DNA of 64,000 bases from Verrucomicrobiota bacterium (GTDB taxonomy: Bacteria; Verrucomicrobiota; Verrucomicrobiia; JAWXBN01), in contig JAWXBN010000053.1 of NCBI GenBank assembly GCA_034440155.1, positions 20,031-84,030 of the forward strand, given 5' to 3'. The position numbers and the translations under genes are program-made. Under the pieces are notes generated by a model. The model was not told where the DNA came from and did no database searches. It saw only the letters and a program-made list of their open reading frames with translations. Shown here one piece after another: positions 8,508-31,910 of the stretch (the stretch's first letter is position 1; each line of letters opens with the position of its first letter).

Positions 8508-8543
8508 TAAAAAAACAAAAAAAGGCCCGTATAAACGGGCCTT
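8508..8543 (-). terminator. rho-independent terminator downstream of rplT
   Basis: Minus-strand reading gives AGGCCCGT-TTAT-ACGGGCCT followed by TTTTTTTGTTTTTTT. 8-bp GC stem, 4-nt loop, long U-tract. Confidence 0.75.
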
Positions 8544-8567
8544 TAATAAAATATTTCTTTGAGACAA

Positions 8568-14555: not shown

Positions 14556-15488
14556 CTATGCTTTAACCTTAGCCAATGTGTCTTTCAGAGCCTTGGCTGA
14601 TGCTTGGAGTCCATTGAGCTCTTTAGGCCAGAGTTCAACCTCGATCCGCTTTTCAGCCCCGCCTCGACCGACGATGGTGGGTACACTCAGACAAATATCC
14701 CGAATCCCGTATTCCCCGCGCATGTAGCTCGACACCGGCAGGATTGCTTTCCGGTCAAGGGCAATCGCTTCCACCACGACCTTGATGGCGACTCCCACGG
14801 CCCAACCTGCTCCACCTTTACGACTGATCACCTCGGCTCCACTGCCTTTAGTGCGTTCAAAAAGCTTTGTCTGGAGCTGAGGCGTCATCCCTGGGAAATT
14901 TGCGAGTGAAATCCCGTCTACAGTCGCTGAGGACCACACGGGAATCATGGAGTCACCATGTTCACCCAAGATCAGGGCGCGAACCTGGGTTGCCGGCAGA
15001 TTGAGTTCAGCAGCGATTAACGAGCAAAACCTTGAGGTATCGAGCATGGTCCCCAGACCAATAACGCGTGACTCTGGAAGCCCGAGTTTTTGTAGGGCAA
15101 GTTGCGTCAGGATATCGACAGGATTACTGACCACAAAAATATAAGCATCATCACGGAGACGGGCTGCCTTTAAACTTTCAAGAATTTGGAGAAAAAGAGA
15201 AACATTCCGGTTAATCAGGTCGAGGCGTGATTCGTCCGGTTTACGGCGCAGTCCTGCCGTAATGACAATCATATTACACTGCGCCATTTGCTCGTATCCA
15301 CAGGAGTATATTTTCTGGTCACCACAAAATGCCGCCCCATGCAACAAATCCAAGGCCTCACCCTCAGCAGTCGCCACATTCGCATCCAAGAGAGCAATTT
15401 CTTTAACAATCCCGCCGCACTGCAAGGCAAAAGCCGCACAACTGCCGACACGTCCCCCTGCACCGATGATTCCGACTTTTAAACTCAT
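14556..15488 (-). CDS. mdh: malate dehydrogenase (LDH-like MDH family)
   Basis: 310 aa. Rossmann GIIGAGGRVGS. Substrate loop ITAGLRRKPDESRLDL carries Arg at the LDH-Q102 equivalent position, the MDH signature. Catalytic H in GEHGDSMIP. Confidence 0.75.
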   Translation of the reverse strand: MSLKVGIIGAGGRVGSCAAFALQCGGIVKEIALLDANVATAEGEALDLLHGAAFCGDQKIYSCGYEQMAQCNMIVITAGLRRKPDESRLDLINRNVSLFLQILESLKAARLRDDAYIFVVSNPVDILTQLALQKLGLPESRVIGLGTMLDTSRFCSLIAAELNLPATQVRALILGEHGDSMIPVWSSATVDGISLANFPGMTPQLQTKLFERTKGSGAEVISRKGGAGWAVGVAIKVVVEAIALDRKAILPVSSYMRGEYGIRDICLSVPTIVGRGGAEKRIEVELWPKELNGLQASAKALKDTLAKVKA

Positions 15489-15566
15489 AATCTTTTTCTC
15501 CCGTTTATTGATAAATATAAAATTTTCCCGAGTCCGTATTCACACGCACCATTTCTCAAAGCATCC

Positions 15567-16613
15567 TTATTTTCCGCCAAAAGCTTTCATGATCTCATTA
15601 GTGATTTTTTGAACCGCTTCTTCTGGCACTTCCACTTCTGCTGCTTTGGCCGATTCGTTCCCGGTCTTGCACCCGCAAGAGCCTGTCGCCGTTTTACCAC
15701 GCAAGACTTCCCACGGATCAACTTCACAGAGTTGCACCGGCTTTAATCCCTCCCGGGGATCTGGCATCCCGAGTTTACTCCGGAGTTCAAGCAATTTACC
15801 CACTTCATCACTCGGAATCGTGCTGTCACCCTTTAACGGCATGGCATTCAAAAGGGTACGGCAATAAGCATCCGTGATTTCCATTTTCCAATAAGCATCT
15901 TCCACCCCAAATCCCCAACAAATAACCCCGTGGTTGCCCATCAGGATTGATTGGTGTTCGGCCGCCAATGGCTGGATGATCTCGGCCATTTCTTTCCCGC
16001 CGGGTGTCTTATAAGGGGCCAAGGGAGCGCGCCCCACAAAAACCTCATATTCGGGAATCAAACAAGCGGGAGGCTCGATTCCGGCTATGGCGAAAGCTGT
16101 GGCATGAACCGGGTGGGCATGGACGACGGCTTTAGCATTTGAGTTCCCCTTATAAAGGGCTAGATGGGTCGTGATTTCACTCGTGCGTTTACTGGAACCG
16201 GCAATTTGATTCCCTTCCAGATCCACCATACAAATCATATCCGGAGTCATAAATCCCTTACTCACCAATGTCGGGGTACAAAGGACTTGATTCTGTCCGA
16301 TACGGTAAGAAATATTCCCCCCGTTCCCGTCAACATATTCACGAGTCCAGAGCCGGCGACCCATTTCACAAATCTCTTTTTTGACGCGTTCGGCTTCTTC
16401 CGAAAAAAACATTGCCTGAACAGGATCAGAAGACGAAGATGCCGAAACACTTACGCCACTCTGGGCAATTTGCGCGGAGACAATAATTTTAATCTGATTT
16501 TCAGAAAAAACATCTTTGGCCCCGGGAGTAACGATAACCCCCGCTAGAACAGTAAATTCTTTTTTGCCGGTGGAGGCAAATTGCATCGCATCTTTTTCTG
16601 TGAAGAGTTTCAT
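15567..16613 (-). CDS. class II aldolase (fuculose/rhamnulose-1-phosphate aldolase-like), BMC-targeted
   Basis: 348 aa. Class II aldolase core from about residue 75 (GNGGNISYR...HAHPVHATAFA). C-terminal linker plus amphipathic helix EEAVQKITNEIMKAFGG looks like a BMC encapsulation peptide. About 70-aa N-terminal extension of unknown function. Confidence 0.8.
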   Translation of the reverse strand: MKLFTEKDAMQFASTGKKEFTVLAGVIVTPGAKDVFSENQIKIIVSAQIAQSGVSVSASSSSDPVQAMFFSEEAERVKKEICEMGRRLWTREYVDGNGGNISYRIGQNQVLCTPTLVSKGFMTPDMICMVDLEGNQIAGSSKRTSEITTHLALYKGNSNAKAVVHAHPVHATAFAIAGIEPPACLIPEYEVFVGRAPLAPYKTPGGKEMAEIIQPLAAEHQSILMGNHGVICWGFGVEDAYWKMEITDAYCRTLLNAMPLKGDSTIPSDEVGKLLELRSKLGMPDPREGLKPVQLCEVDPWEVLRGKTATGSCGCKTGNESAKAAEVEVPEEAVQKITNEIMKAFGGK

Positions 16614-16619
16614 AATTTA

Positions 16620-16916
16620 TTATTCCTGGTATGTTTTTCCTTGATAAAAATATTCATCGATGAGACCCGCACAATAGGCATCCACAGGCCGAGCCGGGTC
16701 GAAAGGGCAGGCAGCCTCACGGCCTTCACTGATGGCGATCGTCTGCCCCTGACTGGCTCCTAACTCGTCATAAACAACAATGGCAAAGTCGGTCGCTTTC
16801 TTCTCACCAGCAAAACGCTCCTGTTTCCAAGGCGCTACCAGCAAAAGCCTCTCACCGACATAACTTTCATGCCGTCTCGACAAGACCACGCGGCCTATGA
16901 CTGTTCCAAATCTCAT
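16620..16916 (-). CDS. BMC vertex protein (BMC-P; EutN/PduN/CcmL family)
   Basis: 98 aa. MRFGTVIGRVVLSRR...ERLLLVAP matches the EutN-family N-terminus. Confidence 0.8.
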   Translation of the reverse strand: MRFGTVIGRVVLSRRHESYVGERLLLVAPWKQERFAGEKKATDFAIVVYDELGASQGQTIAISEGREAACPFDPARPVDAYCAGLIDEYFYQGKTYQE

Positions 16917-17188
16917 GCGTTTAAATTCACTCCGTCGTCAATTACCCCCAGCACCGCCCAACGGGCAGGACTGAGTTCACTACCGACAATTTTCCGGGCT
17001 TCCGAGCCGTCACTGGAAATAATGACTTTTGATCCGATCCCAGCTCCAAAAGTATCAATCACCAGTTGCGGAGCCCCGTCATTAAAATCGTCATAGGAAA
17101 GAGGTTGTGCAATCATCAGACGCCACCCCTCGAGTGAAACATGTTTCACCTCGGCTGTTGCATAACCTTCTATCCGTGCGATTTTCAT
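16913..17188 (-). CDS. BMC vertex protein (BMC-P; EutN/PduN/CcmL family)
   Basis: 91 aa. MKIARIEGYATAEVKHVSLEGWRLMIAQPL... Overlaps the next BMC-P gene by 4 nt. Confidence 0.8.
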   Translation of the reverse strand: MKIARIEGYATAEVKHVSLEGWRLMIAQPLSYDDFNDGAPQLVIDTFGAGIGSKVIISSDGSEARKIVGSELSPARWAVLGVIDDGVNLNA

Positions 17189-17195
17189 TCGTTAA

Positions 17196-18656
17196 TCAAT
17201 AAATCTTGAGTTGATCGACCATGACACAGCGACGGCTGCGGGTGAATGTCATCGGTGTGGTGACTCCTTCTCCCGTCGGGGTCGCGATACTAAAGCTCAG
17301 AAAACCTTCACCTCCCAAACCCAAACCTGTCATGCTCGGACCGTTCTTGATGTAAAGTGTCGTATCTACGGCTTGAGCCATTTTCGTCATATTGACGACA
17401 TTCTGGGAATGAATGATGGCTGTGTGTTTATAACCATGCTCGGCACGAACCGCTGCGGCCACCGCATCGTCAAAATTCTTTACCCGTACAATCGGGATAA
17501 AGGGCATCATCTGCTCTTCTTCCACAAAGATATGATCTTCAGGGGTCACCCCAAAAAGTAACTGTGTCGATGCTGGCACATCTAGCCCTGCAATTTTAGC
17601 CAATACTGAAGCATCGGCTCCCACGAGCTTGCGATTCACACTCGGATGAGCGCAACCCGCGCCTTGGCCTTCGGGGAATACAAAAGCTTCTTGGGTGAGT
17701 TTTTCGATTTGGGCTGCATTTAATTGGACTGCCCCGTGTTTCTTGAGGGCGGCAATCAAGGCGTCGGCTACTTTCTCCACCACAAAAACTTCCTTTTCGC
17801 CGATGCAGAGCAAATTGTTATCATAAGAAGCTCCTTGGATGATTGCCGAGGCCGCCTGATCGAGGTTTGCGGTTTCATCCACGACGACAGGGGGATTTCC
17901 CGGACCGGCACAAACGGCACGTTTTCCTGATGCCATGGCTGCTTTGACTACCGCAGGGCCGCCTGTAACGCAGAGCAAACGGACAAACGGGCTCTTGCAC
18001 ATGGTATTAAAGGATTCAAGAGTTGGTTTCTCCACCATAGACAACATATCGCTGATCCCTGTGACCTTTTCGATTTCACGGTTGTAAACACGCAAGGCAA
18101 TGGCCGCACATTTTGCCGCACTCGGATGACAGTTAAAAACAATCGTGTTCCCCGCAGCAATCATATTAATCGCATTGCCCGTAATGGTAGGAACACTGTG
18201 GGTCGACGGGGTAATCGCCCCGATCACGCCCCATGGCGTATATTCGATCACTGTTAACCCGTGATCACCACTGAAAGCGTCGTGTTTGAGGAATTCCACA
18301 CCTGGAACCAAATCACCACAAATGCCCAGCTTCTCGATTTTATGATCCAAGCGCCCTATTTTGGTTTCTTCGAACTCAATCCGGCCCCACTCTTGGGCAT
18401 TTTGCACACAGAGTTTACGGATGACATTAATCGCTTTTTTACGGGCTTCGACCCCGGCGGCCTGGAGCTTTTGAAAAGAAACATCAGCAGCGGCAATGGC
18501 TTCTTCCATCGTGGGGTACACACCGTATCCACCGGCACTCACCGGTATACTGGAGACCGGCGTAGCGGGAGTCGCCTGTGGAGCACCAGCTCCCAAACTT
18601 GCCAACACCTGTTGAACCACCCTTGCGATTGTATCATCATTAATTTGTGTGTTCAT
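17196..18656 (-). CDS. CoA-acylating aldehyde dehydrogenase (PduP/EutE-like) with N-terminal encapsulation peptide
   Basis: 486 aa. ALDH fold with catalytic Cys in NLLCIGEKE. N-terminal amphipathic helix DDTIARVVQQVLASL followed by a G/A/P/T-rich linker is typical of BMC encapsulation peptides. Confidence 0.85.
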   Translation of the reverse strand: MNTQINDDTIARVVQQVLASLGAGAPQATPATPVSSIPVSAGGYGVYPTMEEAIAAADVSFQKLQAAGVEARKKAINVIRKLCVQNAQEWGRIEFEETKIGRLDHKIEKLGICGDLVPGVEFLKHDAFSGDHGLTVIEYTPWGVIGAITPSTHSVPTITGNAINMIAAGNTIVFNCHPSAAKCAAIALRVYNREIEKVTGISDMLSMVEKPTLESFNTMCKSPFVRLLCVTGGPAVVKAAMASGKRAVCAGPGNPPVVVDETANLDQAASAIIQGASYDNNLLCIGEKEVFVVEKVADALIAALKKHGAVQLNAAQIEKLTQEAFVFPEGQGAGCAHPSVNRKLVGADASVLAKIAGLDVPASTQLLFGVTPEDHIFVEEEQMMPFIPIVRVKNFDDAVAAAVRAEHGYKHTAIIHSQNVVNMTKMAQAVDTTLYIKNGPSMTGLGLGGEGFLSFSIATPTGEGVTTPMTFTRSRRCVMVDQLKIY

Positions 18657-18692
18657 AATCGATTTTCATCCTGATCAAACGGCATTATCGTT

Positions 18693-19001
18693 CTACTTAT
18701 TCTTGTATATTTCACGTCCATGGAGATCGACCGCGTCGACGATGCCGATAATGACAGCATCGACGGGTGTATCCTTATCCTTGGCGGCCAGACGGGCGGA
18801 GCTTCCTTGCACAACAAGCACGAGCTCACCCACGCCGGCCCCGAGGCTATCCGTCACCACGATTGTCGATGATGAAGCTTTGAATTCCTTAGCGTCCGGC
18901 CCTTCAGCAGTGACAGGACGCACGACGAGCAGTTTCTGCCCGGTCATTTTTTCATTCTTCTTGGTCGCGACCAGCGCGCCCTCGACTTTGGCTAGGATCA
19001 T
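18693..19001 (-). CDS. BMC vertex protein (BMC-P; EutN/PduN/CcmL family)
   Basis: Likely start is the internal MILAKVEGALVATKK... (about 102 aa). The ORF track extends 25 codons further upstream. Confidence 0.8.
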   Translation of the reverse strand: MILAKVEGALVATKKNEKMTGQKLLVVRPVTAEGPDAKEFKASSSTIVVTDSLGAGVGELVLVVQGSSARLAAKDKDTPVDAVIIGIVDAVDLHGREIYKNK

Positions 19002-19102
19002 AATACTTTTCCTTCTATGCAGATGAAGGCGTAATGAATCATCCGTTAACACCGGACCACCCACTCCATCCCGCAAACTGCCTCAGGTTATACTGGCTTA
19101 AA

Positions 19103-19384
19103 TTATTTTGTCTTGGGGAGTATACCCAGGATTTCGTCATGAGGACGGGGAATCACGCTGGTGGTAATAATTTCTCCACCAATAGCGGCGGCGGCTGTAC
19201 GACCAGCCTCTGTTGCGGCTTTAACAGCGGCGACATCACCGGTGACAACGCTCGTGACCATGGCGTTACCGACTTGTTGGTAACCCACGAGTTTAACATT
19301 CGCGCTTTTGAGCATCGCGTCGGTAGCCTCGACCAATGCGACGAGCCCACGTGTTTCAATGAATCCTAATGCTTGTTGTGACAT
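19103..19384 (-). CDS. BMC hexamer shell protein (BMC-H, Pfam00936)
   Basis: 93 aa. MSQQALGFIETRGLVALVEATDAMLKSANVKLVGY... Canonical PduA/EutM-type BMC domain. Confidence 0.9.
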   Translation of the reverse strand: MSQQALGFIETRGLVALVEATDAMLKSANVKLVGYQQVGNAMVTSVVTGDVAAVKAATEAGRTAAAAIGGEIITTSVIPRPHDEILGILPKTK

Positions 19385-19435
19385 ATTTTTGTTTTCCTAT
19401 TTTTGTTTTTTAAGTTGGTTAAAAATTTAGTTCTA

Positions 19436-20647
19436 TTATTGATGCAGAAGCTTCCAAGCATTCCGCGCGATAATCGTTTCTTCCGATGTCGGGATCAACA
19501 TGATGCGCGTTTTACTCGAAGGCTTCGAGAGCGTTACTTCCGTTTTGGGTGCTGTTTTATTAGTTTCTAAGTCGAGCTCAATCCCGAGCCCGTCGAGACC
19601 CGCGCAAATTGCTTCACGCAGCCAAGGGTTATTTTCGGCAATACCGGCTGTGAAGATCAATACATCACAACCACCAAGCTCGACAAGGAATTGACCGATA
19701 TAATTCCGAATATTCTTCACCAGGACTTTCAGTGCCATTTGCGCATCCACGCTTCCTTCATCAGCAGCCTTCAAGACATCGCGCAAATCCCCTGTGGGTG
19801 TGCCCGCCATTCCTTTGAGTCCGGCTTCTTTCATGAGCATTTGCTCTACTTTTTCCACGCCCAAACCCAGGTCGCGGATCAGGTAGATCAGTGCAAAGCT
19901 ATCAAAGTCACCGACACGGTTATTTTGGGGCAAACCACTCTGCGGTGTCATTCCCCAACTCGAATCCACAGCCACACCACCCTTGACCGCAGCAATCGAT
20001 GAACTCCCCCCCAAATGGCAGGAAATCATCCGCAAATTGCCCGCACCTAAAATCTCGGCGGCACGCTCAGTCACAAACCGGTGGCTGGCTCCATGGAACC
20101 CGTTGCGGCGAATCCCGTATTTATCATGCCACTCTTGAGGAATGGCAAATCGGGTATTCTGCTCGGGAACATGGTCGTAGAAGGCTGTTTCGAATGTACC
20201 GACACAGGGAATCTCTGGATAGTCCTTCTGAAAAAGACGCACCGCATTTACATACGGCGGATTATGCGCGGGCAGGAGGGTATAGATTTCCTCCATGGCC
20301 TTGAGCACATCCTCGGTCATTTCCACAGTCCCACTGATTCCCTTGGCCATTACCGGTTTGAACCCAATCGCTTTGACTTCGTCCATGGAGGTAATCACAC
20401 CTTCCTCGGTATCCATCATGGATTCAAAAGCCATATGAATGGCGGTCGGATAATCTGGAATCGGACAGGTTTTCTTCTGCGCTATCCCGCCCATCTTTTG
20501 ATAAGAATAGATACCGTCCTGCGAACCAATCCGTTCCACCCCTCCTTTACAGAGGAAAGTCTCATCGGGCATCGAAAATACAACGAATTTGAACGAAGTA
20601 CTTCCAATATTGGCTACGAGTATTTTATTTTTTTGCACGGACGACAT
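19436..20647 (-). CDS. ackA: acetate/propionate kinase
   Basis: 403 aa. ILVANIGSTSFKF N-terminal ATPase motif and ASKHH-family core. Confidence 0.9.
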   Translation of the reverse strand: MSSVQKNKILVANIGSTSFKFVVFSMPDETFLCKGGVERIGSQDGIYSYQKMGGIAQKKTCPIPDYPTAIHMAFESMMDTEEGVITSMDEVKAIGFKPVMAKGISGTVEMTEDVLKAMEEIYTLLPAHNPPYVNAVRLFQKDYPEIPCVGTFETAFYDHVPEQNTRFAIPQEWHDKYGIRRNGFHGASHRFVTERAAEILGAGNLRMISCHLGGSSSIAAVKGGVAVDSSWGMTPQSGLPQNNRVGDFDSFALIYLIRDLGLGVEKVEQMLMKEAGLKGMAGTPTGDLRDVLKAADEGSVDAQMALKVLVKNIRNYIGQFLVELGGCDVLIFTAGIAENNPWLREAICAGLDGLGIELDLETNKTAPKTEVTLSKPSSKTRIMLIPTSEETIIARNAWKLLHQ

Positions 20648-20725
20648 AGGGATATCTATCGATCTAATATTTTATGTGTGTAAAAAGGTTCCCGCCTAGA
20701 AATAACGAATCCGGCGGAAAATCCC

Positions 20726-21019
20726 TTATTTGGCTGCGGTAGCTCCACCGATCCATTTACCCATTCCAGCGAGTTCATCATGCGGACGGGGGATGACATG
20801 GACAGCGACGACTTCACCGACAGCGGCAGCGGCGGTGGCCCCTGCTTCGATAGCGGCTTTAACAGCAGCGACATCACCCTTTACAAAAGCCGTGACATTT
20901 CCTGAGCCGATCTTTTCCCAACCAACGATCTGGACATTGGCGGATTTGAGCATTTCATCGGTCGCTTCGAGTAATGCGACCAATCCTTTTGTTTCAACCA
21001 TACCTAGAGCTTGTGACAT
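20726..21019 (-). CDS. BMC hexamer shell protein (BMC-H)
   Basis: 97 aa. [34 protein letters not shown]... Confidence 0.9.
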
Positions 21020-21045
21020 AAATTTCTTTTCTCCGTATTTTAAAA

Positions 21046-21315
21046 TTAAGCGATATAAACCTTGAGCAGATCCGGATGGGGATTTGCGATGACATGACTG
21101 GCGACCAGTGTTCCAATGCGTTGAACCACTTCGCGCCCGGAATCAACTGCAGCTTTAACACTGCCTACATCTCCGCGGACAACGACAGTGACCATAGCAC
21201 CACCGATTTGGATCATTTTGACGAATTCGACATTCGCCGCCTTACACATGGCGTCTGTCGCCTCGGCGAGGCCGACGTAACCTTTAGTTTCGAGTAGTCC
21301 GATTGCTTGACTCAT
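21046..21315 (-). CDS. BMC hexamer shell protein (BMC-H)
   Basis: 89 aa. [34 protein letters not shown]... Confidence 0.9.
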
Positions 21316-21376
21316 ATTTTCCTTCTTTTCTTTGGGTTTGGGTTAGATTGTTTATTTTGTGTGTTAAAATCTTCGA

Positions 21377-22054
21377 TTAGACGAGCTCTACCTGTTCCGC
21401 CCTGTCGAGATCACAGGCATTTGCCTCATCGGTATCGATGTGGACCTCGAGTTTAAATGAGGGATCTACACGCACGAGCATGTCTTCAAAAACGGTCGTA
21501 CATTTAGGGGCTGTGATCCGCAGTTTCATATTATCCAAGTGTTTGACACCGTAAAACTCCGCATCAGATGGGCTCATATGAACATGGCGTGAGGCACGGA
21601 TAATCCCATCGGGCATTTCCCACGAGCCTTTCGGCCCGATCAATATCCCGCTGGTAGTCCCTGAAATATCCGCGGACATCCGGACGGGAATATCTAACCC
21701 GAGCTGGATCGAATCGCTGTAAGCAAGCTCGACTTGGTTAAGATTCCGGCATGGCCCGAGAATGCGGAGATTCGGGATGATCCTTTTCTTCGGCCCGATC
21801 AAAGTAACGGTTTCATTCGCCGCAAATTGCCCTTCTTGGTAAAGCCATTTGAAAACGGTGAGCTTGTGCCCGGCACCAAAAAGTTTTTCGACGGCTTCCT
21901 GAGTAAGATGGCAGTGGCGCGCGGAAGAATTTACGACTAATAATGGAACAGTTTTACCCGTCCTCGATGCAGCACCTGCTAATTGATTTTTCAGCGCCTG
22001 GCGGACGAGTTGCTCGACAGTGCCACGATCATAACTTGGATTCCCCTTAATCAT
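21377..22054 (-). CDS. pduL: phosphate propanoyl/acyltransferase PduL with N-terminal encapsulation peptide
   Basis: 225 aa. Two PduL repeats with SARHxHL-type motifs (VNSSARHCHL, IIRASRHVHM). N-terminal helix GTVEQLVRQALKNQL plus linker. Confidence 0.85.
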   Translation of the reverse strand: MIKGNPSYDRGTVEQLVRQALKNQLAGAASRTGKTVPLLVVNSSARHCHLTQEAVEKLFGAGHKLTVFKWLYQEGQFAANETVTLIGPKKRIIPNLRILGPCRNLNQVELAYSDSIQLGLDIPVRMSADISGTTSGILIGPKGSWEMPDGIIRASRHVHMSPSDAEFYGVKHLDNMKLRITAPKCTTVFEDMLVRVDPSFKLEVHIDTDEANACDLDRAEQVELV

Positions 22055-22866
22055 GCGATCGACTCCTTCTGGGTTAAATTTCTCTTAGATCCCTGTACTG
22101 CGACAACCACCTGGACGCCGGTCCGCTTGACCATTTTAAGGTGTTCGTCAGGAATGCCCTCAGAGGTGATCCAGTAATCAAAATCTTCAAATTGGGCAAA
22201 TGCCACAGGGCGATTCTGCCCCCATTTTGAGGCGTCCACCACCAAAATCGTCTTTTCGGCCCGTTTCATGAAAAGCTTTTTCATCTGTGCCTCGGTAAGC
22301 TCTGTGGTTGTGGCACCCCGTTCAAGCGAAAGCCCCGATGAACTCAAAATGGCGAAATCCGCAGATAATTGCTCCATCCATTGCGTGGAAAGCTCCCCAA
22401 CCAAAGCTTGGTTCACCACGCGCAATTGTCCCCCGATACAAATCACTTGGGCTTGGGTGCTATGCGCCGCGGTTAAAAGGGGAATGGAATTGGTAATAAT
22501 CGTTAAATCCTTCCGCCGTAAAAGGCGGCGACCAATCTCCATACATGTCGAACCGGAATCCACAAATACAGAGGAATTTGATGGAATAAGATCAATAACC
22601 GTATCGGCAATGGCCTGTTTGTCCAGACGGTTCTCCTGGGCTTTCTGTTCGTAACTGGGTTCCCCATTGAAATAGGATGGATGCATGACCCCACCATGAA
22701 TCCTGATTAATTTACCCGATTCCTCCAGCTCTGTGAGGTCACGGCGCAGGGTTGCAGGGGAAACCCCCAAGGCTTTCTCAAGGGTCTGCACACTCAGACG
22801 GCCCTTCCGGTCGAGAAGCGAAGTTATTTTTTGAAAGCGCTCGTGAGCGAACATGAGCGAATTCAA
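22051..22866 (-). CDS. DeoR/GlpR-family transcriptional regulator
   Basis: 271 aa. N-terminal HTH (LSVQTLEKALGVSPATLRRDLTELEE) plus sugar-phosphate-binding C-terminal domain. TTG start at 22866 or ATG at 22854. Confidence 0.85.
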   Translation of the reverse strand: MNSLMFAHERFQKITSLLDRKGRLSVQTLEKALGVSPATLRRDLTELEESGKLIRIHGGVMHPSYFNGEPSYEQKAQENRLDKQAIADTVIDLIPSNSSVFVDSGSTCMEIGRRLLRRKDLTIITNSIPLLTAAHSTQAQVICIGGQLRVVNQALVGELSTQWMEQLSADFAILSSSGLSLERGATTTELTEAQMKKLFMKRAEKTILVVDASKWGQNRPVAFAQFEDFDYWITSEGIPDEHLKMVKRTGVQVVVAVQGSKRNLTQKESIA

Positions 22867-22878
22867 GCAATTCGCTCA
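22854..22878. promoter_or_regulatory. perfect 10-bp inverted repeat (TGAGCGAATT-N5-AATTCGCTCA) overlapping the DeoR start; a third TGAGCGAA copy lies 10 bp downstream
   Basis: Read directly from the sequence at 22841-22880: cgTGAGCGAAcaTGAGCGAATTcaagcAATTCGCTCAcg. Confidence 0.5.
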
Positions 22879-22948
22879 CGCCCCGTCAAGAGCAATTTTA
22901 TATTTTTTTCTGAACAAAATCGATTGTTGTCCTCAATATACCAAAAAA

Positions 22949-25900
22949 TCAGTCTACCTTCAGGATGACTTCCGAGAGGATAATCGAGAGTTCCGCTAGA
23001 CGATAAGGCTTTGGTAAAGCCGCTTTAAAGCCCATTTGGGAAAAACTCATCATTGTTTCTTCTTCCGAATACCCGCTGGAAGCAATCGCCCTCACCTCCG
23101 GATCAATCTGCTTCAATCGCCTGAGGGTTTCGACGCCACCAATGCCTCCTTGGATCGTCAAGTCCAGAATTAAGGCATCAACCCGGGTTCCATTTGCTTT
23201 AAGCTTTAAAAACGCCTCTACACAATCTTCTCCGTGAGATGTTTTGACCGCCTGATACCCGAGCACCTCGATAGTTTCCGCCAAAGTATTCAGGATCATC
23301 TCATTATCATCCATAATCACAATCAATCCCTGTCCCTCGATCACATTCTCGGACATCCTGCGGGGGGATGTATCCTGACTATCCGTAGCTGGTAAGGTCA
23401 CAGAAAAAACAGTTCCCTTTGTGGATGAAGAGGAGAACTGGATGCTTCCCCCGTGTTTACCGATAATCGAATGGCTAATGGCCAACCCCAATCCTGTGCC
23501 ATTTTTCTTGGTGGTGAAATAAGGGTTAAAGATATTCCTTTGAACTTCCCTCGGGATACCCGGCCCATTATCGGCCACTGAAAATGAAACAAATTTAGTC
23601 ACCTGATTGCCCGTGGAGGGTAACTCGATATTCTCCGCATAGACCTTGATTTTTCCACCTTCACCGAGCACCTGCCGTGCATTCAGTGCGAGATTGTATA
23701 TAACCTGTTTGATCTGGCCTTCATCGGCATTCACACGGAATAAATCATCAGGAATATTGTATTCGCAAGCAATTTGCGAACCCCGGAGCGCAAACCGGGA
23801 GGCTTCCGTGAGTAATTCTGCTAAGCTGGTTACCTGTTTGATTGGTGCCCCCCCTCGCGCAAAAGTCAGGAGCTGCTTGGTTAATTGCTGGGCTTCATCA
23901 CAAACTTTGAGGATATCATCGAGATACTCCCGTGTTTTAGACTGGATAACCTCTTGATTTTTCACTAAGGAGGCATTCATCACGATCGTCGACAAGAAGT
24001 TATTGAAATCATGGGCTATACCCCCTGCCAAAATCCCGACTGACTCGAGCCTTTGATTCCGTTCATTCCTTTCATCCTCACGTTTTTTATCGGAGATGGC
24101 ATGAATAAAAAGGATAATTCTGAAAACCTCGCCTTGGGAATTATAAATAGGGCTAAACCGTGTATGCCACCAGAAAAGATCGTCCTCCCCCGTGATCGAC
24201 AGCTCCGCCTCGCATGTCTCCTGTTTCAGCAAACACTCTTCCAGAAGTGCAAACAACCCGTCTCCCGCTTCCTGCGGGAGGAGCCGCCTACATTCATAAA
24301 CGTCGTTTTCCAGCAAGATGTGACAATTCTCCGTGTCGACAACCTTCCTGAACGCGTTATTCAGTGCGACACAATGTAAACTCCCATCATCATTCTTCTC
24401 AATGACTGCCAACATGGTATCTACCCCGTCAAAGATCGATTTAAAGAAAGCTTCACTCTGGATAAGCTGTTCCTCGGCAGACTTTTTATCTGTGATATCA
24501 TGGGCGATTCCTGCCACTCGCCGCACGTTTCCGTCATCATCACGGATGGGGTAACCCCTATCCCTAATCCACCGGACGGATCCGTCAGCCATGACTATCC
24601 GGTACTCCTTGTCGTAAAGGACATCCTTCCCCTGCTGGATCGACATTTTTACTACCCAAGGGCGGTCATCGGGATGGATGGCCTCCAACCAATCGAGCGG
24701 GTCTTTAAGTAGTTTGTCTACCGATCTCCCCCAGACCTTCTCATACGATGGGTTCACATAGACCATCAGGTCGGTCTTCGCATCCCATATCCAGAAAACA
24801 TCATAGATATTTTCCGTAATCTGAAGGAACCGCTCTTCATTTTCTTTAAGCTTTTCCTCTATGATTTTTCTCTCTGTGATGTCTAGGGCAAACCACACCG
24901 TATAAATATTCTCAGGATTACTCTCGACTAAATCACTCCCGATCAGTGCCATGGCCAAGGCCCCGTCTTTACGGATGAACTCCTGTTCGATCAACGTCGG
25001 CCCCCCTTCATTATTCCTCTCCCTGACAAACTCATGGGTCTGACCAGGCCGTTTCATCATGAGGGAATCAATTTTGAGTCTGCCCGCTTGGATATCCTCA
25101 TGGCTGTAACCCGTCATTTTTAGGAAATATTCATTACAATCCCGGATCACCCCTTTTGCCCCCGTGAAAAAGACACCGACAAGATCAGACTCAAAAACCT
25201 TTCTGAACCGGGATTCATTTTCCTTGAGGGCATTTTGTGTCTTGACCCTATTAGACACATCACGACTGCTGCAAACAAGATGCATTTCATCATCACCCTG
25301 GGCAGAAAGCGATTTTATAGTGGACTCTAGCCACTTATAGTCACCCCCTTTACAGGCAAACCGATAGGTAACACTACAAGCACTTAACTCATCCTTGAGC
25401 ATGGAGAAATGCTGTCCAACAAGTATTTGCTCATCCGGATGAACAAACTCCATGATCTTCTGACCAATTAACTCTTCTGGATCATGACCGATTATCACAC
25501 TACACGAAGGCGAAACATATTGAAGGGTCAAATCCTCATCTAAAAGACAAATCATGTCCGAGGAATGCTCGGCAAGCAAACGGTAACGGGCTTCACTTGC
25601 AAGGGAGGCTTCCTCCGCCGTTTTCCTTTCGGTGATATCCCTGCACAAACCGATCACTTGACACACAGCACCTCCACTATCCCTCTTAAAAACCGCCTCA
25701 CTACTGCGGAACCAGCGGAATCCGCCCCCTTTAAGGATCATACGGTACTCCATATCGATCACATCACCGTCATTGAGTCCGAGATACAGACCCTGGTGCT
25801 CGATAAATGCCGGATAATCATCGGGATAAATCACTGTTTCTATTACTTTAGTTCCCATTTCGATAATCTCTTCCGGTGTGTAGCCCGCCCGGTCAAAAAT

Positions 25901-26431
25901 GCTCCGGTTACAAAAAATATTCTTCCTTTCGATGCTATCAAAAATATACAGGATATCCGGGACTGTATGATTAATCCTTTCCGCAAATTCCTTACTACTG
26001 AAAAGTTCATTCTCGGTATTCTTGCGGGCTGTAATATCCTTGGCGAATACCAATCGTGCTTTTACACCATTAAAAACAAACTCATGGGACTCCACCTCGA
26101 CCCAGATAACCGTCCCATCTTTCTTGAGATGTTTCCATTCAGCTTCATGGGTAAATTTTTGTAAGGCCTCGGTGAGGAATTCCTTGAGGACAAGCACATC
26201 TTCCGCATGCCTGATATCAAAAATAGTCATCGATGAAAATTCTTCTTTGGAATAACCGTATTGGCGGACAGCGGCAGGGTTCACGTCCTGGAATCGAAAT
26301 GTCCCGACGTCATAAATATACATCGGCAAAGGGTTACACTCAAAAATCAAACGGAATGAGTCAGGACCAAAATTTTGCAGGGTTTGGTCCTGATCTTGAT
26401 TACCCGGCAGAGGCTTTTTATCTTCTGGCAT
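22949..26431 (-). CDS. hybrid sensor histidine kinase: multiple PAS/PAC domains, HisKA, HATPase_c, C-terminal receiver
   Basis: 1160 aa. At least four PAS-like blocks, H-box GGIAHDFNNFLSTI, G-boxes (GTGLGLAISHSII), receiver with DD...D...K (IMDDNE...LILDL...K). Confidence 0.85.
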   Translation of the reverse strand: MPEDKKPLPGNQDQDQTLQNFGPDSFRLIFECNPLPMYIYDVGTFRFQDVNPAAVRQYGYSKEEFSSMTIFDIRHAEDVLVLKEFLTEALQKFTHEAEWKHLKKDGTVIWVEVESHEFVFNGVKARLVFAKDITARKNTENELFSSKEFAERINHTVPDILYIFDSIERKNIFCNRSIFDRAGYTPEEIIEMGTKVIETVIYPDDYPAFIEHQGLYLGLNDGDVIDMEYRMILKGGGFRWFRSSEAVFKRDSGGAVCQVIGLCRDITERKTAEEASLASEARYRLLAEHSSDMICLLDEDLTLQYVSPSCSVIIGHDPEELIGQKIMEFVHPDEQILVGQHFSMLKDELSACSVTYRFACKGGDYKWLESTIKSLSAQGDDEMHLVCSSRDVSNRVKTQNALKENESRFRKVFESDLVGVFFTGAKGVIRDCNEYFLKMTGYSHEDIQAGRLKIDSLMMKRPGQTHEFVRERNNEGGPTLIEQEFIRKDGALAMALIGSDLVESNPENIYTVWFALDITERKIIEEKLKENEERFLQITENIYDVFWIWDAKTDLMVYVNPSYEKVWGRSVDKLLKDPLDWLEAIHPDDRPWVVKMSIQQGKDVLYDKEYRIVMADGSVRWIRDRGYPIRDDDGNVRRVAGIAHDITDKKSAEEQLIQSEAFFKSIFDGVDTMLAVIEKNDDGSLHCVALNNAFRKVVDTENCHILLENDVYECRRLLPQEAGDGLFALLEECLLKQETCEAELSITGEDDLFWWHTRFSPIYNSQGEVFRIILFIHAISDKKREDERNERNQRLESVGILAGGIAHDFNNFLSTIVMNASLVKNQEVIQSKTREYLDDILKVCDEAQQLTKQLLTFARGGAPIKQVTSLAELLTEASRFALRGSQIACEYNIPDDLFRVNADEGQIKQVIYNLALNARQVLGEGGKIKVYAENIELPSTGNQVTKFVSFSVADNGPGIPREVQRNIFNPYFTTKKNGTGLGLAISHSIIGKHGGSIQFSSSSTKGTVFSVTLPATDSQDTSPRRMSENVIEGQGLIVIMDDNEMILNTLAETIEVLGYQAVKTSHGEDCVEAFLKLKANGTRVDALILDLTIQGGIGGVETLRRLKQIDPEVRAIASSGYSEEETMMSFSQMGFKAALPKPYRLAELSIILSEVILKVD

Positions 26432-26493: not shown

Positions 26494-27480
26494 TTAGTGG
26501 ATTAACCATAACCCGAAACGTAACCACAGGGGAATCGTGACCAAACTCAAGATCGACGTCGTAAAAATCACGCGAAATGCTGTCGGCACATCCCCTTTAT
26601 AATGGCGGGTCATCACTAAGGGAAAAACCCCGGAGCCCATTGCCGCCTGTACCGCGATCACTTGCCTCAGCTCCTCCGACATAGGTAAAAACTTTGCCAC
26701 TATCAGGAAAATCGCCGGCAAAAAAATCAAACGCAGAAACGCCGCACCTAACGAGGTAGAAACCCCCTCTTTCAGGATACCCGGCTGGAAATAGTCATAC
26801 ATCACCGCCCCGATTAAAAGCAGGATCACCGGGATCGCCGCACCTCCCAGCATTTGCATCAGGGTAATACAAGTGACGGGAATGTGACTCCTCTCTACTA
26901 ATAAATTCAGTATCAACCCCAAAAAAATTGCGATCAGCGGTCCGCTGAAAAGACGGCGCCATTCTTTAAAAGGATTTGCCCCGGTTAACAGACTGATCCC
27001 GACCGTCCAAATCGCAACATCCACCCCGAGATTAAATACAAAAAGTACCCCCAAGGTTTTTACCCCGAAAAAATCCATGATCAAGGGTATCGGGATGTAA
27101 CCAAAATTAAACACCCCGACAGTCATCGCAAAAGTGCGCCTTTTAAACTCTTTATCGAGCCCTAGCCACCGACTCGACACATAGGCTACAAGGAACCCGA
27201 TTGCCGCCGCAAAAAAACCCAAGACTGGCGGCAAGAAAAGATTCTCCGCTGAGTCCAAAGCTTTATTTCCGATGATTTTCTCTAGGATCAAGCAGGGGAA
27301 AAGCAGGTTAATCGCCAGTTTCATCAGCGTGTCATCAGCCTGCTTATTTAGCCATCCACGGGCGCGCACACCGGCACCCAGGATCATAATCAGGAAAATC
27401 GGCATCACCGATTCGAGTATGCGCAAATAGTCCGCCATAATAACCACCCCATTAATCCCCTGATTTATCCACCCTGACAA
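26494..27480 (-). CDS. AEC-family (auxin efflux carrier-like) membrane transporter
   Basis: 328 aa, about 10 TM. Two-repeat architecture typical of PF03547. Start may be the internal MADYLRIL. Confidence 0.6.
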   Translation of the reverse strand: MSGWINQGINGVVIMADYLRILESVMPIFLIMILGAGVRARGWLNKQADDTLMKLAINLLFPCLILEKIIGNKALDSAENLFLPPVLGFFAAAIGFLVAYVSSRWLGLDKEFKRRTFAMTVGVFNFGYIPIPLIMDFFGVKTLGVLFVFNLGVDVAIWTVGISLLTGANPFKEWRRLFSGPLIAIFLGLILNLLVERSHIPVTCITLMQMLGGAAIPVILLLIGAVMYDYFQPGILKEGVSTSLGAAFLRLIFLPAIFLIVAKFLPMSEELRQVIAVQAAMGSGVFPLVMTRHYKGDVPTAFRVIFTTSILSLVTIPLWLRFGLWLIH

Positions 27481-27635: not shown

Positions 27636-28601
27636 GTGAATCTTATGAATACCGATCTGCACACATGGAAAACCAAACATGGCCAAATCATCATCTCTCC
27701 CGAACGCGCCCGCGTCATCCAAGCACAGGTGGGTAGCAATGACCTTTTATGGATGAATGCCTTTTGGCGGCAGGGATGGAATGTCGGTGGTGACCGCCTC
27801 TGGGTGGGACCGGAGACTGACTGGTTCTGGAAAGTCAAAGATGATCCCGATTTTTCAAAGTATGAGGTTCAGAAACCCCTCGACAGTGACAACTGGAATA
27901 TCACCCAATTAGATAAAGATGTCTGTCATCTCTCCAAAATGATTACGCTCAAGCACCAGCATGATAAAAGCTCCATCAAACTCGCCTTCACCCGCAGTTT
28001 TCTACTCAATGACATGGAAGCCCCCTATTTCGAGAAATTCGTCTCTTACACGAGTAATAATACCCTCGAAATCCGTAAGGGCAAAGTCGGCCAACAAGTC
28101 GATCTCTGGGCCATCCTCCAGGTCCCAGCTGGGGGCATCGTTTATATCCCCGTCCGCGGCGATGGCGAGATCCGTAATTATTTTGATCCGATCACCGACG
28201 ACCTCTGGGAGAAACGTAAACGCGTCATTGCTTTTGAGATTACCGGTAAACAACAATATAAAGTCGGTATCTCCCCTTCCAGCAGCCGAGGCCGATACGC
28301 CTACGTACGCGAGTTTGGCGATGATTACCTAGTCGTTTACCGCGAATACTTTAACCAACCATGGCGCGAATACTGTGACTCGCCCTTGAGTGAGCCCGAC
28401 ACACAAGGCGACTCTCTCCAGGTTTATAATGACAATGGTGATTTCGGCGGTTTCGGCGAGATCCAGCACCACACTCCCGGACTCCGTGTTGATGGTTATT
28501 TCGACCACCTGAGCAATAGCTACCTCACCATTGCTGGTATCGTCAAAGAAAAACAATGGTCCAAGTGGTATAATTACTGGCTCCTCGGTGAGGATGATTA
28601 A
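27636..28601 (+). CDS. hypothetical protein
   Basis: 321-aa ORF with good coding periodicity and no recognised family. Only plus-strand gene in a minus-strand neighbourhood. Confidence 0.45.
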   Translation: MNLMNTDLHTWKTKHGQIIISPERARVIQAQVGSNDLLWMNAFWRQGWNVGGDRLWVGPETDWFWKVKDDPDFSKYEVQKPLDSDNWNITQLDKDVCHLSKMITLKHQHDKSSIKLAFTRSFLLNDMEAPYFEKFVSYTSNNTLEIRKGKVGQQVDLWAILQVPAGGIVYIPVRGDGEIRNYFDPITDDLWEKRKRVIAFEITGKQQYKVGISPSSSRGRYAYVREFGDDYLVVYREYFNQPWREYCDSPLSEPDTQGDSLQVYNDNGDFGGFGEIQHHTPGLRVDGYFDHLSNSYLTIAGIVKEKQWSKWYNYWLLGEDD

Positions 28602-28708
28602 CCCTTGCCGGGTTAATCACTCAAGGCGGGAGCATCTTTTTTTTTCGTGAAGGACCTGAAGGGGATAATACACCATTCATTCCGAATAGCACCTATCTCC
28701 GCTCAGGG

Positions 28709-31846: not shown

Positions 31847-31871
31847 TCAGCCGGTTTATCTTTAAATAACA

Positions 31872-31910
31872 AACCCCCCACTTTTTCGATAAAGTGGGGG
31901 GTTTTGTTTT
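31872..31910. terminator. bidirectional rho-independent terminator between convergent genes
   Basis: AACCCCCCACTTT-TTCGAT-AAAGTGGGGGGTT followed by TTGTTTT on plus strand and by T-rich run on minus strand. Confidence 0.65.

Follow-up and report, generated by a model that had tools for sequence, protein, structure and literature searches.

The window that we analyzed, a whole stretch of DNA 64 kb in length, contains a DeoR/GlpR-family regulator gene at the head of a PVM-type BMC operon, and a cluster of short repeats lies across the start of that gene. This raises the question of whether the repeats form an operator through which the regulator controls its own operon. Alternatively, the repeats may act in RNA, as a hairpin that occludes the start codon. 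An earlier note on this DNA had put forward both possibilities. Its description of the element as a perfect 10-bp inverted repeat with a 5-bp spacer and a third direct copy, placed at the translational start of the DeoR gene, is correct in coordinates and sequence; the gene lies on the minus strand, and its ATG (22854-22852) is overlapped by the repeat.

A repeat cluster at the head of a BMC operon

The operon behind the regulator gene encodes PduL, three BMC-H proteins, acetate kinase, three BMC-P (EutN) proteins, an aldehyde dehydrogenase, a class II aldolase and an LDH/MDH-like dehydrogenase, and loci L001-L005 and L007 have the identical gene order. The class II aldolase signature enzyme, the DeoR regulator and the listed enzyme and shell genes agree with the published description of PVM-type BMC loci (PMC4207490). 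The regulator scores under every NCBIfam equivalog cut-off, and its stop codon overlaps the PduL ATG by 4 bp. A gene for a large hybrid PAS histidine kinase lies upstream, as it does in the closest relatives, and the repeat element lies between 70 and 105 nt past the kinase stop. The features that we discuss are collected in Table 1.

Table 1. Features at the DeoR gene, with window positions; signed numbers are relative to the A of the ATG
Feature	Position	Strand	Basis
PVM-type BMC operon behind the DeoR gene, presumably driven by the predicted promoter	14556..22054	-	Pfam scans
DeoR/GlpR-family regulator gene, first in the BMC operon, PvmA-like	22051..22854	-	Pfam PF08220 (HTH_DeoR) and PF00455 (DeoRC sensor domain)
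Half-site H3, gene strand TTCGCTCA, +4..+11, core CGCTCA +6..+11	22844..22851	-	Same orientation as H2, start-to-start distance exactly 10 bp
Start codon (ATG) of the DeoR/PvmA-like regulator; +1 of the predicted leaderless transcript	22852..22854	-	Protein P0001, homologue N-termini
Half-site H2, gene strand AATTCGCTCA, -9..+1, core CGCTCA 22854-22859 (-5..+1)	22854..22863	-	Repeat search, conservation
Predicted -10 hexamer TTGAAT (-12..-7)	22861..22866	-	17-bp spacing from TTGACG, 6 bp to ATG
Half-site H1, gene strand TGAGCGAATT, -24..-15, core TGAGCG 22873-22878 (-24..-19), in the -35/-10 spacer	22869..22878	-	Repeat search, conservation
Predicted -35 hexamer TTGACG, -35..-30	22884..22889	-	Conservation, register
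A/T-rich tract, gene strand aaaaaaatataaaatt, about -55..-40, possibly UP-element-like	22894..22909	-	Sequence; putative function

On the plus strand, positions 22842-22880 read cgTGAGCGAAcaTGAGCGAATTcaagcAATTCGCTCAcg. The 8-mer TGAGCGAA occurs at 22844-22851 and 22854-22861 on this strand and at 22871-22878 on the minus strand, and nowhere else in the 64 kb. A total of three is unremarkable, as 2.0 are expected per window. All three copies are confined to 35 bp (22844-22878), however, and no 8-mer of the window other than TGAGCGAA reaches three non-overlapping copies inside 40 bp; 0.02 such triple clusters (at most 40 bp) are expected per simulated window. Two perfect 10-bp pairings can be drawn within the cluster, one of 22854-22863 with 22869-22878 across the 5-bp spacer and a second of 22842-22851 with 22871-22880. 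Since about five other sites in the window carry a perfect 10-bp inverted repeat, such a repeat alone is weak evidence. The cluster as a whole is unique in the window and non-random.

It is hardly credible that the cluster arose by chance or neutral local duplication, or that it serves the upstream kinase gene as an intrinsic terminator. A duplication would fit the tandem 10-bp arrangement of TTCGCTCATG and TTCGCTCACG, and a terminator would fit the distance from the kinase stop. Against the former stand the low expected frequency of such clusters and the conservation of the element in orthologues whose flanks have diverged. Against the latter, the stem is followed by GUUCGCUCACGAG rather than by a T-run, and a scan of 22400-23400 finds no terminator-like site.

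Predicted promoter and transcription start

The identical 267-aa database protein P0001 begins at ATG 22854-22852, and homologues all begin M-F/I/L-A-H/Q-E-R. We rejected the TTG at 22866, with which the longest open reading frame begins, because it lies inside the predicted -10 box and homologues all start at MFAH. With the start at the ATG, one repeat copy ends in the A of that codon, and codons 2-4 (Phe-Ala-His) are formed by the third direct copy (22844-22851). No Shine-Dalgarno sequence lies upstream of this ATG, where the 12 nt read ttgaattcgctc, unlike at the PduL, BMC-H and LDH-like genes, which are preceded by GGAG/AGGA-type tracts. The DeoR gene has the AUG start and the missing Shine-Dalgarno sequence expected of leaderless mRNAs. 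A metagenome scan with the regulator protein was of no use, as it returned only 29%-identical relatives.

The promoter-like elements around the repeats would place the transcription start at this ATG. TTGAC is invariant at the predicted -35 in 7/7 BMC-linked orthologues, and TTG occupies -35 in 27 of 71 non-redundant DeoR loci versus a background of 3% per position. The predicted -10 is preceded by TG at -15/-14 (22868-22869), which gives it an extended -10-like form, and it covers the "loop" of the inverted repeat plus part of one arm. Across the 27 loci that are in register, T-7 is kept in 23/27, A-8 in 21/27 and the G-14 of the TG in 21/27, and paralogues have TATAAT, TACGAT or TACTAT in place of TTGAAT. 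Further upstream, an A-rich run ending in TAAAAAT(T) lies just 5' of CCCTTGAC in all BMC-linked orthologues, and A is the majority base at -47 to -41 in the in-register loci. Promoter-like matches of at least 9/12 peak where 5-6 nt separate the -10 from the ATG (8 + 14 of 73 loci versus 0.06 at other offsets). Given this geometry, transcription seems to start at the A of the DeoR ATG.

Our promoter/terminator consensus scan of the window called no promoter at the repeat site, because TTGAAT is without the A at position 2; the lack of this usually critical base is the weak point of the predicted promoter. The scanning tool does call TTGACA-16-TATAAT ending 5 nt before the ATG at locus L089, and TTGACA-16-TACGAT ending 6 nt before it at locus L013.

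The predicted start bears directly on the hairpin. The 5' arm falls inside the spacer that separates the conserved -35 from the -10, so a transcript that begins at the predicted +1 would not contain it. For a hairpin to be the primary function, transcription would have to come from an upstream start, by read-through from the kinase gene or from an unseen promoter; the 5' arm would then pair with the arm that ends in AUG, or alternatively with codons 2-4, so that the start codon is sequestered and translation of the regulator is set. Minus-strand RNA of 22830-22900 indeed has a predicted fold of -33.3 kcal/mol (z = -5.7) that places the AUG within the stem, and the terminator scan finds nothing between the kinase and DeoR genes that would stop read-through. 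Among the four closest genomes, the 5 nt beyond the core differ (gggcg, gaaca, gaagg, gggtg), and 19/20 positions could still pair with UGUUC when G-U pairs are allowed; the palindrome thereby reaches 15 positions, and an added RNA-level role is therefore possible. These purine-for-purine changes are, however, also the expectation for neutral transitions, and covariation is no better than in shuffles, both in the BMC-linked set (147/500; 7 loci) and in the 27 in-register loci. The inner-stem pairs are broken in the more distant orthologues L005, L087 and L007, and the arms change independently, with the G-21/C-3 pair (column 20 with 38) unpaired in 10/27 loci, for example where TGATCx stands opposite CGCTCA. 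The spacings found in the family are unlike those of a hairpin as well (N3, N13 and N23, the last being the commonest), and no Rfam family matched 22600-23100 at E<=1. With its 5' arm outside the predicted transcript, no excess of covariation and an inner stem that breaks down in distant orthologues, the hairpin that the earlier note had offered as an alternative is unsupported, and we consider it unlikely as the primary function.

Conservation and 10-bp phasing of the half-sites

The motif is present at every orthologous BMC locus that we found (L001-L007 and L087). Among these, CTTGAC-N(5)-TGAGCG...CGCTCATGTTCGCTCA is kept in 7/7 distinct BMC-linked orthologues with 58-88% amino acid identity, and their remaining intergenic DNA has diverged so far that it cannot be aligned. 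Promoters of about 25 paralogous DeoR genes, drawn from several phyla, have the same architecture, and some of them stand in front of PfkB-DeoC sugar operons. The BMC-linked relatives found are all Verrucomicrobiota, and the DeoR subfamily with the MFAH/QER N-terminus has members in Verrucomicrobiota, Abditibacteriota and Phycisphaerae, and also in MAGs labelled Myxococcales or Fibrobacterota. Judged by these sequence comparisons, the architecture tracks the regulator gene and not the BMC genes.

The earlier note had proposed recurrence of the motif as a check on the operator, and the operator reading passes it. The motif recurs at orthologous BMC loci and paralogous DeoR promoters, but it is at none of the other promoters in the 64-kb window, where no wider regulon is visible: searches of the window for TGAGCG-N13-CGCTCA, TGAGCG-N3-CGCTCA, CGCTCA-N4-CGCTCA and TGAGCGAATT (at most 2 mismatches) gave no further site beyond chance. 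Since local, single-operon regulons are common among DeoR-family regulators (PMC3870299), this absence is not disqualifying.

The distribution of the motif also bears on which protein would bind it. The repeats could be an operator for another DNA-binding protein, such as a global catabolite regulator or a partner of the upstream PAS histidine kinase. The synteny of this large hybrid sensor kinase in the closest relatives is in keeping with that idea, and the binder is something that we infer. The kinase carries a receiver domain and lacks one for DNA binding, however, and the motif accompanies the DeoR gene into unrelated operons and into phyla where the kinase or the BMC genes are missing. 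In addition, one half-site falls within the conserved first codons of the regulator itself, and a 10-bp repeat period is what has been described for regulators of the DeoR family (PMC3870299). Another binder is thus improbable.

All three half-sites have conserved positions across the 27 in-register loci. In H1, T-24, G-23 and A-22 are kept in 24-25/27; in H2, C-1 and A+1 are invariant (27/27) and C-5, G-4, C-3 and T-2 are kept in 20-24/27; in H3, positions +5 and +9 to +11 are invariant (27/27). The last base of H2 doubles as the first base of the ATG and as the predicted transcription start. When at most one mismatch is allowed, TGAGCG-Nk-CGCTCA occurs with k=3 in 5 loci, with k=13 in 14 loci and with k=23 in 28 hits, and with any other k at most once, while the direct arrangement CGCTCA-N4-CGCTCA is present in 20 loci; control regions yielded about 0 half-site pairs in this spacing test. 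Inverted half-site pairs across loci follow strict 10-bp phasing, with N3, N13 and N23 only.

Two further sets of candidate sites were rejected. A fourth inverted copy, CGAGCG at +12..+17 (Glu-Arg codons), has a wobble base that is not conserved, GAA being commoner than GAG. Possible distant auxiliary operators in relatives (inside Mem_trans in L001-3, inside the kinase gene in L006) have no conserved equivalent at the homologous positions of the window.

Because H3 lies in coding sequence, we also considered codon usage. Codon 3 is GCT in 19/19 in-register loci versus 1.3 expected (about 7%) from the genes' own Ala codon use, and it is GCT in 24/24 loci with an upstream hexamer versus 21/35 without it (Fisher p=3e-4), although the loci compared are related to each other and our counts and P values overstate their independence. 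By these codon counts, codon 3 is under nucleotide-level constraint. N-terminal codon choice affects translation initiation, and selection on initiation could account for part of the preference for GCT. Taken further, H2 and H3 might together be a 5'-end signal of a leaderless mRNA, for start-site selection, ribosome binding or stability, and H1 might be incidental spacer sequence; the invariance of C-1/A+1 and AUGUUCGCUCA in the in-register loci is consistent with this. Such a signal would not account for H1, H2 and H3 being the same hexamer, inverted and direct, in exact 10-bp steps. Nor would it account for the N3 palindromes of loci L008, L009, L012 and L088, which set the motif apart from the start codon, or for the full N13 palindrome of L079, which lies 12 nt further upstream. 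We regard it as very unlikely, more so than either the hairpin or another binder.

A model for a probable operator and its relation to known systems

We put the probability at roughly three in four that the adjacent DeoR-family (PvmA-like) regulator has its operator here, with the three TGAGCG(AA) copies as half-sites positioned over the core promoter of a regulator-first and probably leaderless PVM BMC operon. The autoregulatory operator of repeated half-sites that the earlier note had suggested thus gains support as a predicted binding site, from the occurrence of the motif at all orthologous BMC loci and many paralogous DeoR promoters and from its 10-bp phasing. As would be expected of a DeoR operator, the element spans -24 to +11 of a DeoR gene, its half-sites are phased at 10 bp, and it is conserved amid diverged flanks (7/7). 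We infer the DeoR protein as the binder, and likewise repression, the transcription start and the inducer.

In the mechanism that we propose, repressor dimers or tetramers would sit on the in-phase half-sites from -24 to +11 when inducer is absent, and would bar RNA polymerase from the -10 box and the start site. Repression would fall on the regulator and BMC genes alike, as negative autoregulation. A sugar-phosphate of fucose or rhamnose catabolism would bind the DeoRC domain and release the repressor. The leaderless first cistron may be translated poorly and the Shine-Dalgarno-led BMC cistrons well, so that one transcript would give little repressor and much shell and enzyme.

More tentatively, and at somewhat less than even odds, the MFAH/QER DeoR subfamily may be expressed from leaderless promoters with an operator that reaches into the regulator's own first codons, such that DNA-binding specificity constrains the N-terminal peptide and the synonymous base of codon 3. 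If so, no half-site pair would be kept more widely than H1-H3 (N23), and members would fill different subsets of four in-phase positions (-24, -15, -5, +6).

The searchable literature describes no cis-regulatory element or transcription start for PVM-type BMC operons, and our searches found no described PvmA operator and no leaderless DeoR regulators. A rhamnose-inducible system built from pvmA in 2025 left its mode of action open (PMC11958385). A defined 35-bp operator/promoter would make it possible to test directly how Verrucomicrobia turn on a fucose/rhamnose organelle, and could serve as a compact inducible-expression part for PVC bacteria, in which the standard systems do not work. The embedded half-site would be a natural case for measuring operator constraint on coding sequence, and the element bears on how a leaderless first cistron may set the repressor-to-cargo ratio from one transcript.

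Several known systems share parts of this arrangement. DeoR and GlpR of Escherichia coli are oligomeric repressors that act on several palindromic or tandem half-sites overlapping the -10 and start region, and they are released by a sugar phosphate (deoxyribose-5-P and glycerol-3-P, respectively); DNA looping between distant operators is documented in E. coli. Their motifs differ from the one described here, looping is not evident in this window, and neither is known to be the first, leaderless cistron of the operon that it controls.

A similarly placed regulator is PvmA (Plim_1758) of Planctopirus limnophila, the first gene of a rhamnose-inducible pvm cluster and probably a repressor (PMC11958385). 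In both cases, a DeoR-family regulator is the first gene of a fucose/rhamnose PVM cluster (PMC11958385, PMC4207490), although PMC11958385 gives no operator or transcription start for PvmA. In P. limnophila, 46 bp separate pvmA from pvmB, and a predicted promoter is discussed for this gap, whereas the regulator and PduL genes overlap in our window.

The acuR-acuI-dddL operon of Rhodobacter sphaeroides is leaderless; its transcript begins at the acuR AUG without a Shine-Dalgarno sequence, an inverted-repeat operator lies over its -35/-10, and translation of AcuR is much weaker than that of the genes behind it (PMC3017554). AcuR belongs to the TetR family, its inverted repeat is 8 bp long (N6), and no operator half-site in coding sequence is reported for it. 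The two systems are alike in their promoter-proximal regulator gene and in an operator that overlaps the promoter, with start and operator proven there and predicted here.

Finally, the DeoR-family RhaR proteins of Bacillales, Rhizobiales, Thermotogales and Chloroflexales are local regulators of sugar catabolism, often encoded inside the operon that they control, and their predicted motifs are imperfect direct repeats with a 10-11 bp periodicity (PMC3870299). This periodicity matches that of H2-H3 (CGCTCA-N4-CGCTCA) and the N3/N13/N23 phasing in our loci. The half-site sequence is a different one, however, and the element described here has an inverted copy too, lies over a predicted leaderless start and places one of its repeats in coding sequence.

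Repeat architecture and the regulator start

The earlier note had described an inverted repeat with a third, direct copy at the start of the DeoR-family regulator gene, and the plus-strand sequence at 22842-22880, cgTGAGCGAAcaTGAGCGAATTcaagcAATTCGCTCAcg, bears this out. The unit TGAGCGAA occurs in the 64-kb window at 22844-51 (+), 22854-61 (+) and 22871-78 (-), and nowhere outside this element. Three copies in 64 kb are near chance (2.0 expected), so it is their tight clustering that marks the element as non-random: the window holds one cluster of three non-overlapping copies within 40 bp, versus 0.02 per simulated window. Two perfect 10-bp inverted pairings, 22854-63 with 22869-78 (5-nt spacer) and 22842-51 with 22871-80 (19-nt spacer), are mutually exclusive. 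Perfect 10-bp inverted repeats are not rare in the window (about five further sites, mostly terminator-like). Short-looped ones with arms of 10 bp or more include 8521-8544, 28595-28619 and 31871-31904, which are intergenic and terminator-like in appearance (the last with a 14-bp stem and many C/G runs), and 26361-26393, inside the kinase gene at its 5' end.

Every gene from 1122 to 27480 lies on the minus strand. The longest regulator ORF begins at a TTG at 22866, which we rejected as the start codon; the gene really begins with the ATG at 22854-22852, because an identical 267-aa protein of a Verrucomicrobiota MAG and all homologues, with their common M-F/I/L-A-H/Q-E-R N-terminus, begin there. 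The protein carries HTH_DeoR and DeoRC domains and falls below the cut-off for all named NCBIfam equivalogs, and its stop codon overlaps the PduL ATG by 4 bp. By the definition in PMC4207490, the operon is a PVM-type fucose/rhamnose microcompartment (BMC) locus. Directly downstream of its LDH-like gene, on the same strand, lies a 437-aa ORF with no Pfam or NCBIfam match (12783-14096, -). In the closest relatives (L001-L004), a 173-aa ORF without a Pfam hit separates the second BMC-H gene from ackA (L001:8176-8697); a 78-nt gap (20648-20725) takes its place in the window, and tblastn found no copy in the whole 64 kb.

On the gene strand, with the A of ATG as +1, the region reads ...aaaaaaatataaaattgctc TTGACG gggcg TGAGCGAATT gc TTGAAT TCGCTC ATG TTCGCTCA CGAG. 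The predicted promoter has canonical sigma-70-type geometry, which would place the transcript start at the start codon. The regulator has no Shine-Dalgarno sequence upstream; GGAG/AGGA tracts do precede the PduL, BMC-H and LDH-like genes.

Features of the regulator start and its surroundings (promoter positions relative to the A of ATG)
Feature	Position or length	Strand	Remarks
Predicted -35	-35..-30	-	TTGACG
-35/-10 spacer	17 bp	-	
H1 (half-site)	-24..-19	-	core TGAGCG, within spacer
Predicted -10	-12..-7	-	TTGAAT, preceded by TG at -15/-14
-10 to ATG	6 bp	-	
H2 (half-site)	-5..+1	-	core CGCTCA, last base = A of ATG
H3 (half-site)	+6..+11	-	core CGCTCA, codons 2-4, exactly 10 bp past H2
BMC operon			downstream of regulator: PduL, then three BMC-H, acetate kinase, three EutN-type BMC-P, aldehyde dehydrogenase, class II aldolase, LDH/MDH-like dehydrogenase
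Hybrid histidine kinase	22949-26431	-	1160 aa; several PAS, HisKA, HATPase, receiver; no DNA-binding domain
Mem_trans/AEC-family transporter	26494-27480	-	
DUF6786 protein	27636-28601	+	

Conservation across the DeoR family

Seven distinct BMC-linked orthologues (L001/3, L004, L005, L006, L007, L087; 58-88% amino acid identity) all carry CTTGAC, five variable bases and TGAGCG...CGCTCATGTTCGCTCA in the same register, while the rest of the kinase-DeoR intergenic region is unalignable among them. L005, L087 and L007 keep neither the AATT/AATT of the inner stem nor the 5 nt flanking the core on the outside. The upstream kinase, transporter and DUF6786 genes are syntenic in L001-L004 but not in L005 or L007; for L006 the comparison covered kinase and transporter, both syntenic there.

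A scan of a genome collection added 80 DeoR loci (40-66% identity), none BMC-linked beyond L005-L007; of three homologues examined near 50% identity, two head PfkB-DeoC sugar operons. Despite this general lack of BMC linkage, the architecture recurs. Of 71 non-redundant loci, 27 have TTG at -35, versus a 3% background per position, and 15 of the 27 have TTGAC there. Promoter-like matches of at least 9/12 end 5 nt before the ATG in 8 of 73 loci and 6 nt before it in 14; elsewhere the mean is 0.06 per offset. In one locus (L089) a consensus tool calls TTGACA-16-TATAAT with its end 5 nt upstream of the ATG, and in another (L013) TTGACA-16-TACGAT with its end 6 nt upstream. Since the position of this -35/-10 pair predicts transcription from the ATG, the DeoR subfamily with the N-terminus MFAH/QER is probably leaderless. 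Seen in the start regions of L005-L084 and L087-L089 and at 22844-22889 in the window, it spans Verrucomicrobiota, Abditibacterium, Phycisphaeraceae and MAGs labelled Myxococcales, Deltaproteobacteria or Fibrobacterota, the majority without BMC linkage.

The half-sites share a strict phasing. Counting TGAGCG-Nk-CGCTCA with at most one mismatch, we found inverted pairs in 5 loci at k=3 and in 14 loci at k=13, 28 hits at k=23, and at most one hit at every other k; direct CGCTCA-N4-CGCTCA occurs in 20 loci, and control regions hold essentially no pairs.

The codons under H3 are constrained as well. Of the in-register loci that are non-redundant and whose product begins MFA, all 19 use GCT as codon 3 (1.3 expected, since GCT accounts for ~7% of the Ala codons elsewhere in these genes), and 18 of the 19 use TTC as codon 2 (9.6 expected). 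GCT at codon 3 accompanies an exact upstream TGAGCG or CGCTCA in 24/24 loci and is found in 21/35 without one (Fisher p=3e-4), although kinship among the loci means that these counts overstate independence. The direction is nevertheless clear, and the codon pattern points to nucleotide-level selection on H3, coupled to the upstream sites.

Relatives also carry this half-site as perfect N3 palindromes within coding regions: ATGAGCGcgtCGCTCAT in the L006 kinase gene (L006:2873-2891), 1.1 kb upstream of that genome's DeoR promoter, and TGAGCGgccCGCTCA in the Mem_trans gene of L001 (3052-3066), L002 and L003. The homologous window positions have no motif match; the Mem_trans site there, 26934-26948, is TCAGCGgacCGCTGA, also palindromic but with G and C exchanged symmetrically. 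In the relatives concerned the palindromes could serve as auxiliary operators for looping, or simply result from Ser-Gly-Pro-Leu codons. A 17-nt unit, GGATGTTGCGCTCGATT, repeats in at least four tandem copies directly upstream of an Abditibacterium DeoR homologue (L015:32-121), up to ~20 nt before the ATG, and may be a different, array-type operator.

Operator or mRNA hairpin

Beyond its anatomy, the element displays conservation, promoter register, 10-bp phasing and codon constraint, and this comparative evidence backs the earlier operator interpretation. We put the probability that it is an operator for the adjacent DeoR regulator at about three in four, judging from sequence comparison.

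The earlier suggestion that an mRNA hairpin hides the start codon is disfavoured. RNA of the region has a strong predicted fold (-33.3 kcal/mol, z = -5.7) with the AUG within the stem, but its 5' arm falls in the spacer of the conserved -35 and -10 boxes, outside the transcript from the predicted promoter. Covariation is no better than in shuffles, both in the BMC-linked set (147/500 shuffles equally good) and in the 27 in-register loci; the two arms drift independently (e.g., TGATCx facing CGCTCA), and Rfam gives no match. A residual hint of pairing comes from the five variable bases outside the core, which read gggcg, gaaca, gaagg and gggtg in the four closest genomes and can all pair with UGUUC if G-U is allowed; the changes are mostly purine transitions facing a coding-fixed T, and by a rough estimate about a quarter of neutral histories would give the same pattern. 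A strict 10-bp ladder is the pattern of a protein reading one face of B-DNA, which an RNA stem would not give; this ladder, with H1-H3 (N23) as the most widespread pair, argues for a protein-type site. A secondary RNA role in kinase read-through transcripts is conceivable, since a terminator scan found none between the kinase gene and the DeoR promoter.

The boldest of the surviving readings is that, throughout a DeoR subfamily that is probably leaderless, the operator may reach into the first codons of the regulator itself. In the proposed mechanism, a PvmA-like DeoR protein would bind H1, H2 and H3 over -24 to +11, blocking RNA polymerase and so repressing its own gene and the BMC operon; it is unlikely to be an activator, because its sites cover part of the -10 box and +1. 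Sugar phosphates are effectors of DeoR-family regulators, and by analogy one from fucose or rhamnose catabolism may release the protein. The predicted leaderless transcript would leave the regulator cistron weakly translated relative to the Shine-Dalgarno-led shell and enzyme cistrons; such weak translation has been demonstrated for the leaderless regulator cistron in the acuR-acuI-dddL operon (PMC3017554).

Relation to known systems

Our literature searches found no description of the motif or of leaderless DeoR regulators. In function, its nearest known counterpart is the Planctopirus limnophila protein PvmA, encoded by the first gene of a rhamnose-inducible pvm cluster and probably a repressor, whose mode of action was left open and for which no operator is mentioned (PMC11958385). 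The 10-11 bp periodic repeats in motifs of the DeoR-family RhaR (PMC3870299) agree with the 10-bp half-site ladder. The element is predicted to act in the manner of DeoR/GlpR/RhaR operators and of regulator-first leaderless operons, and it adds to these rather than forming a separate kind.
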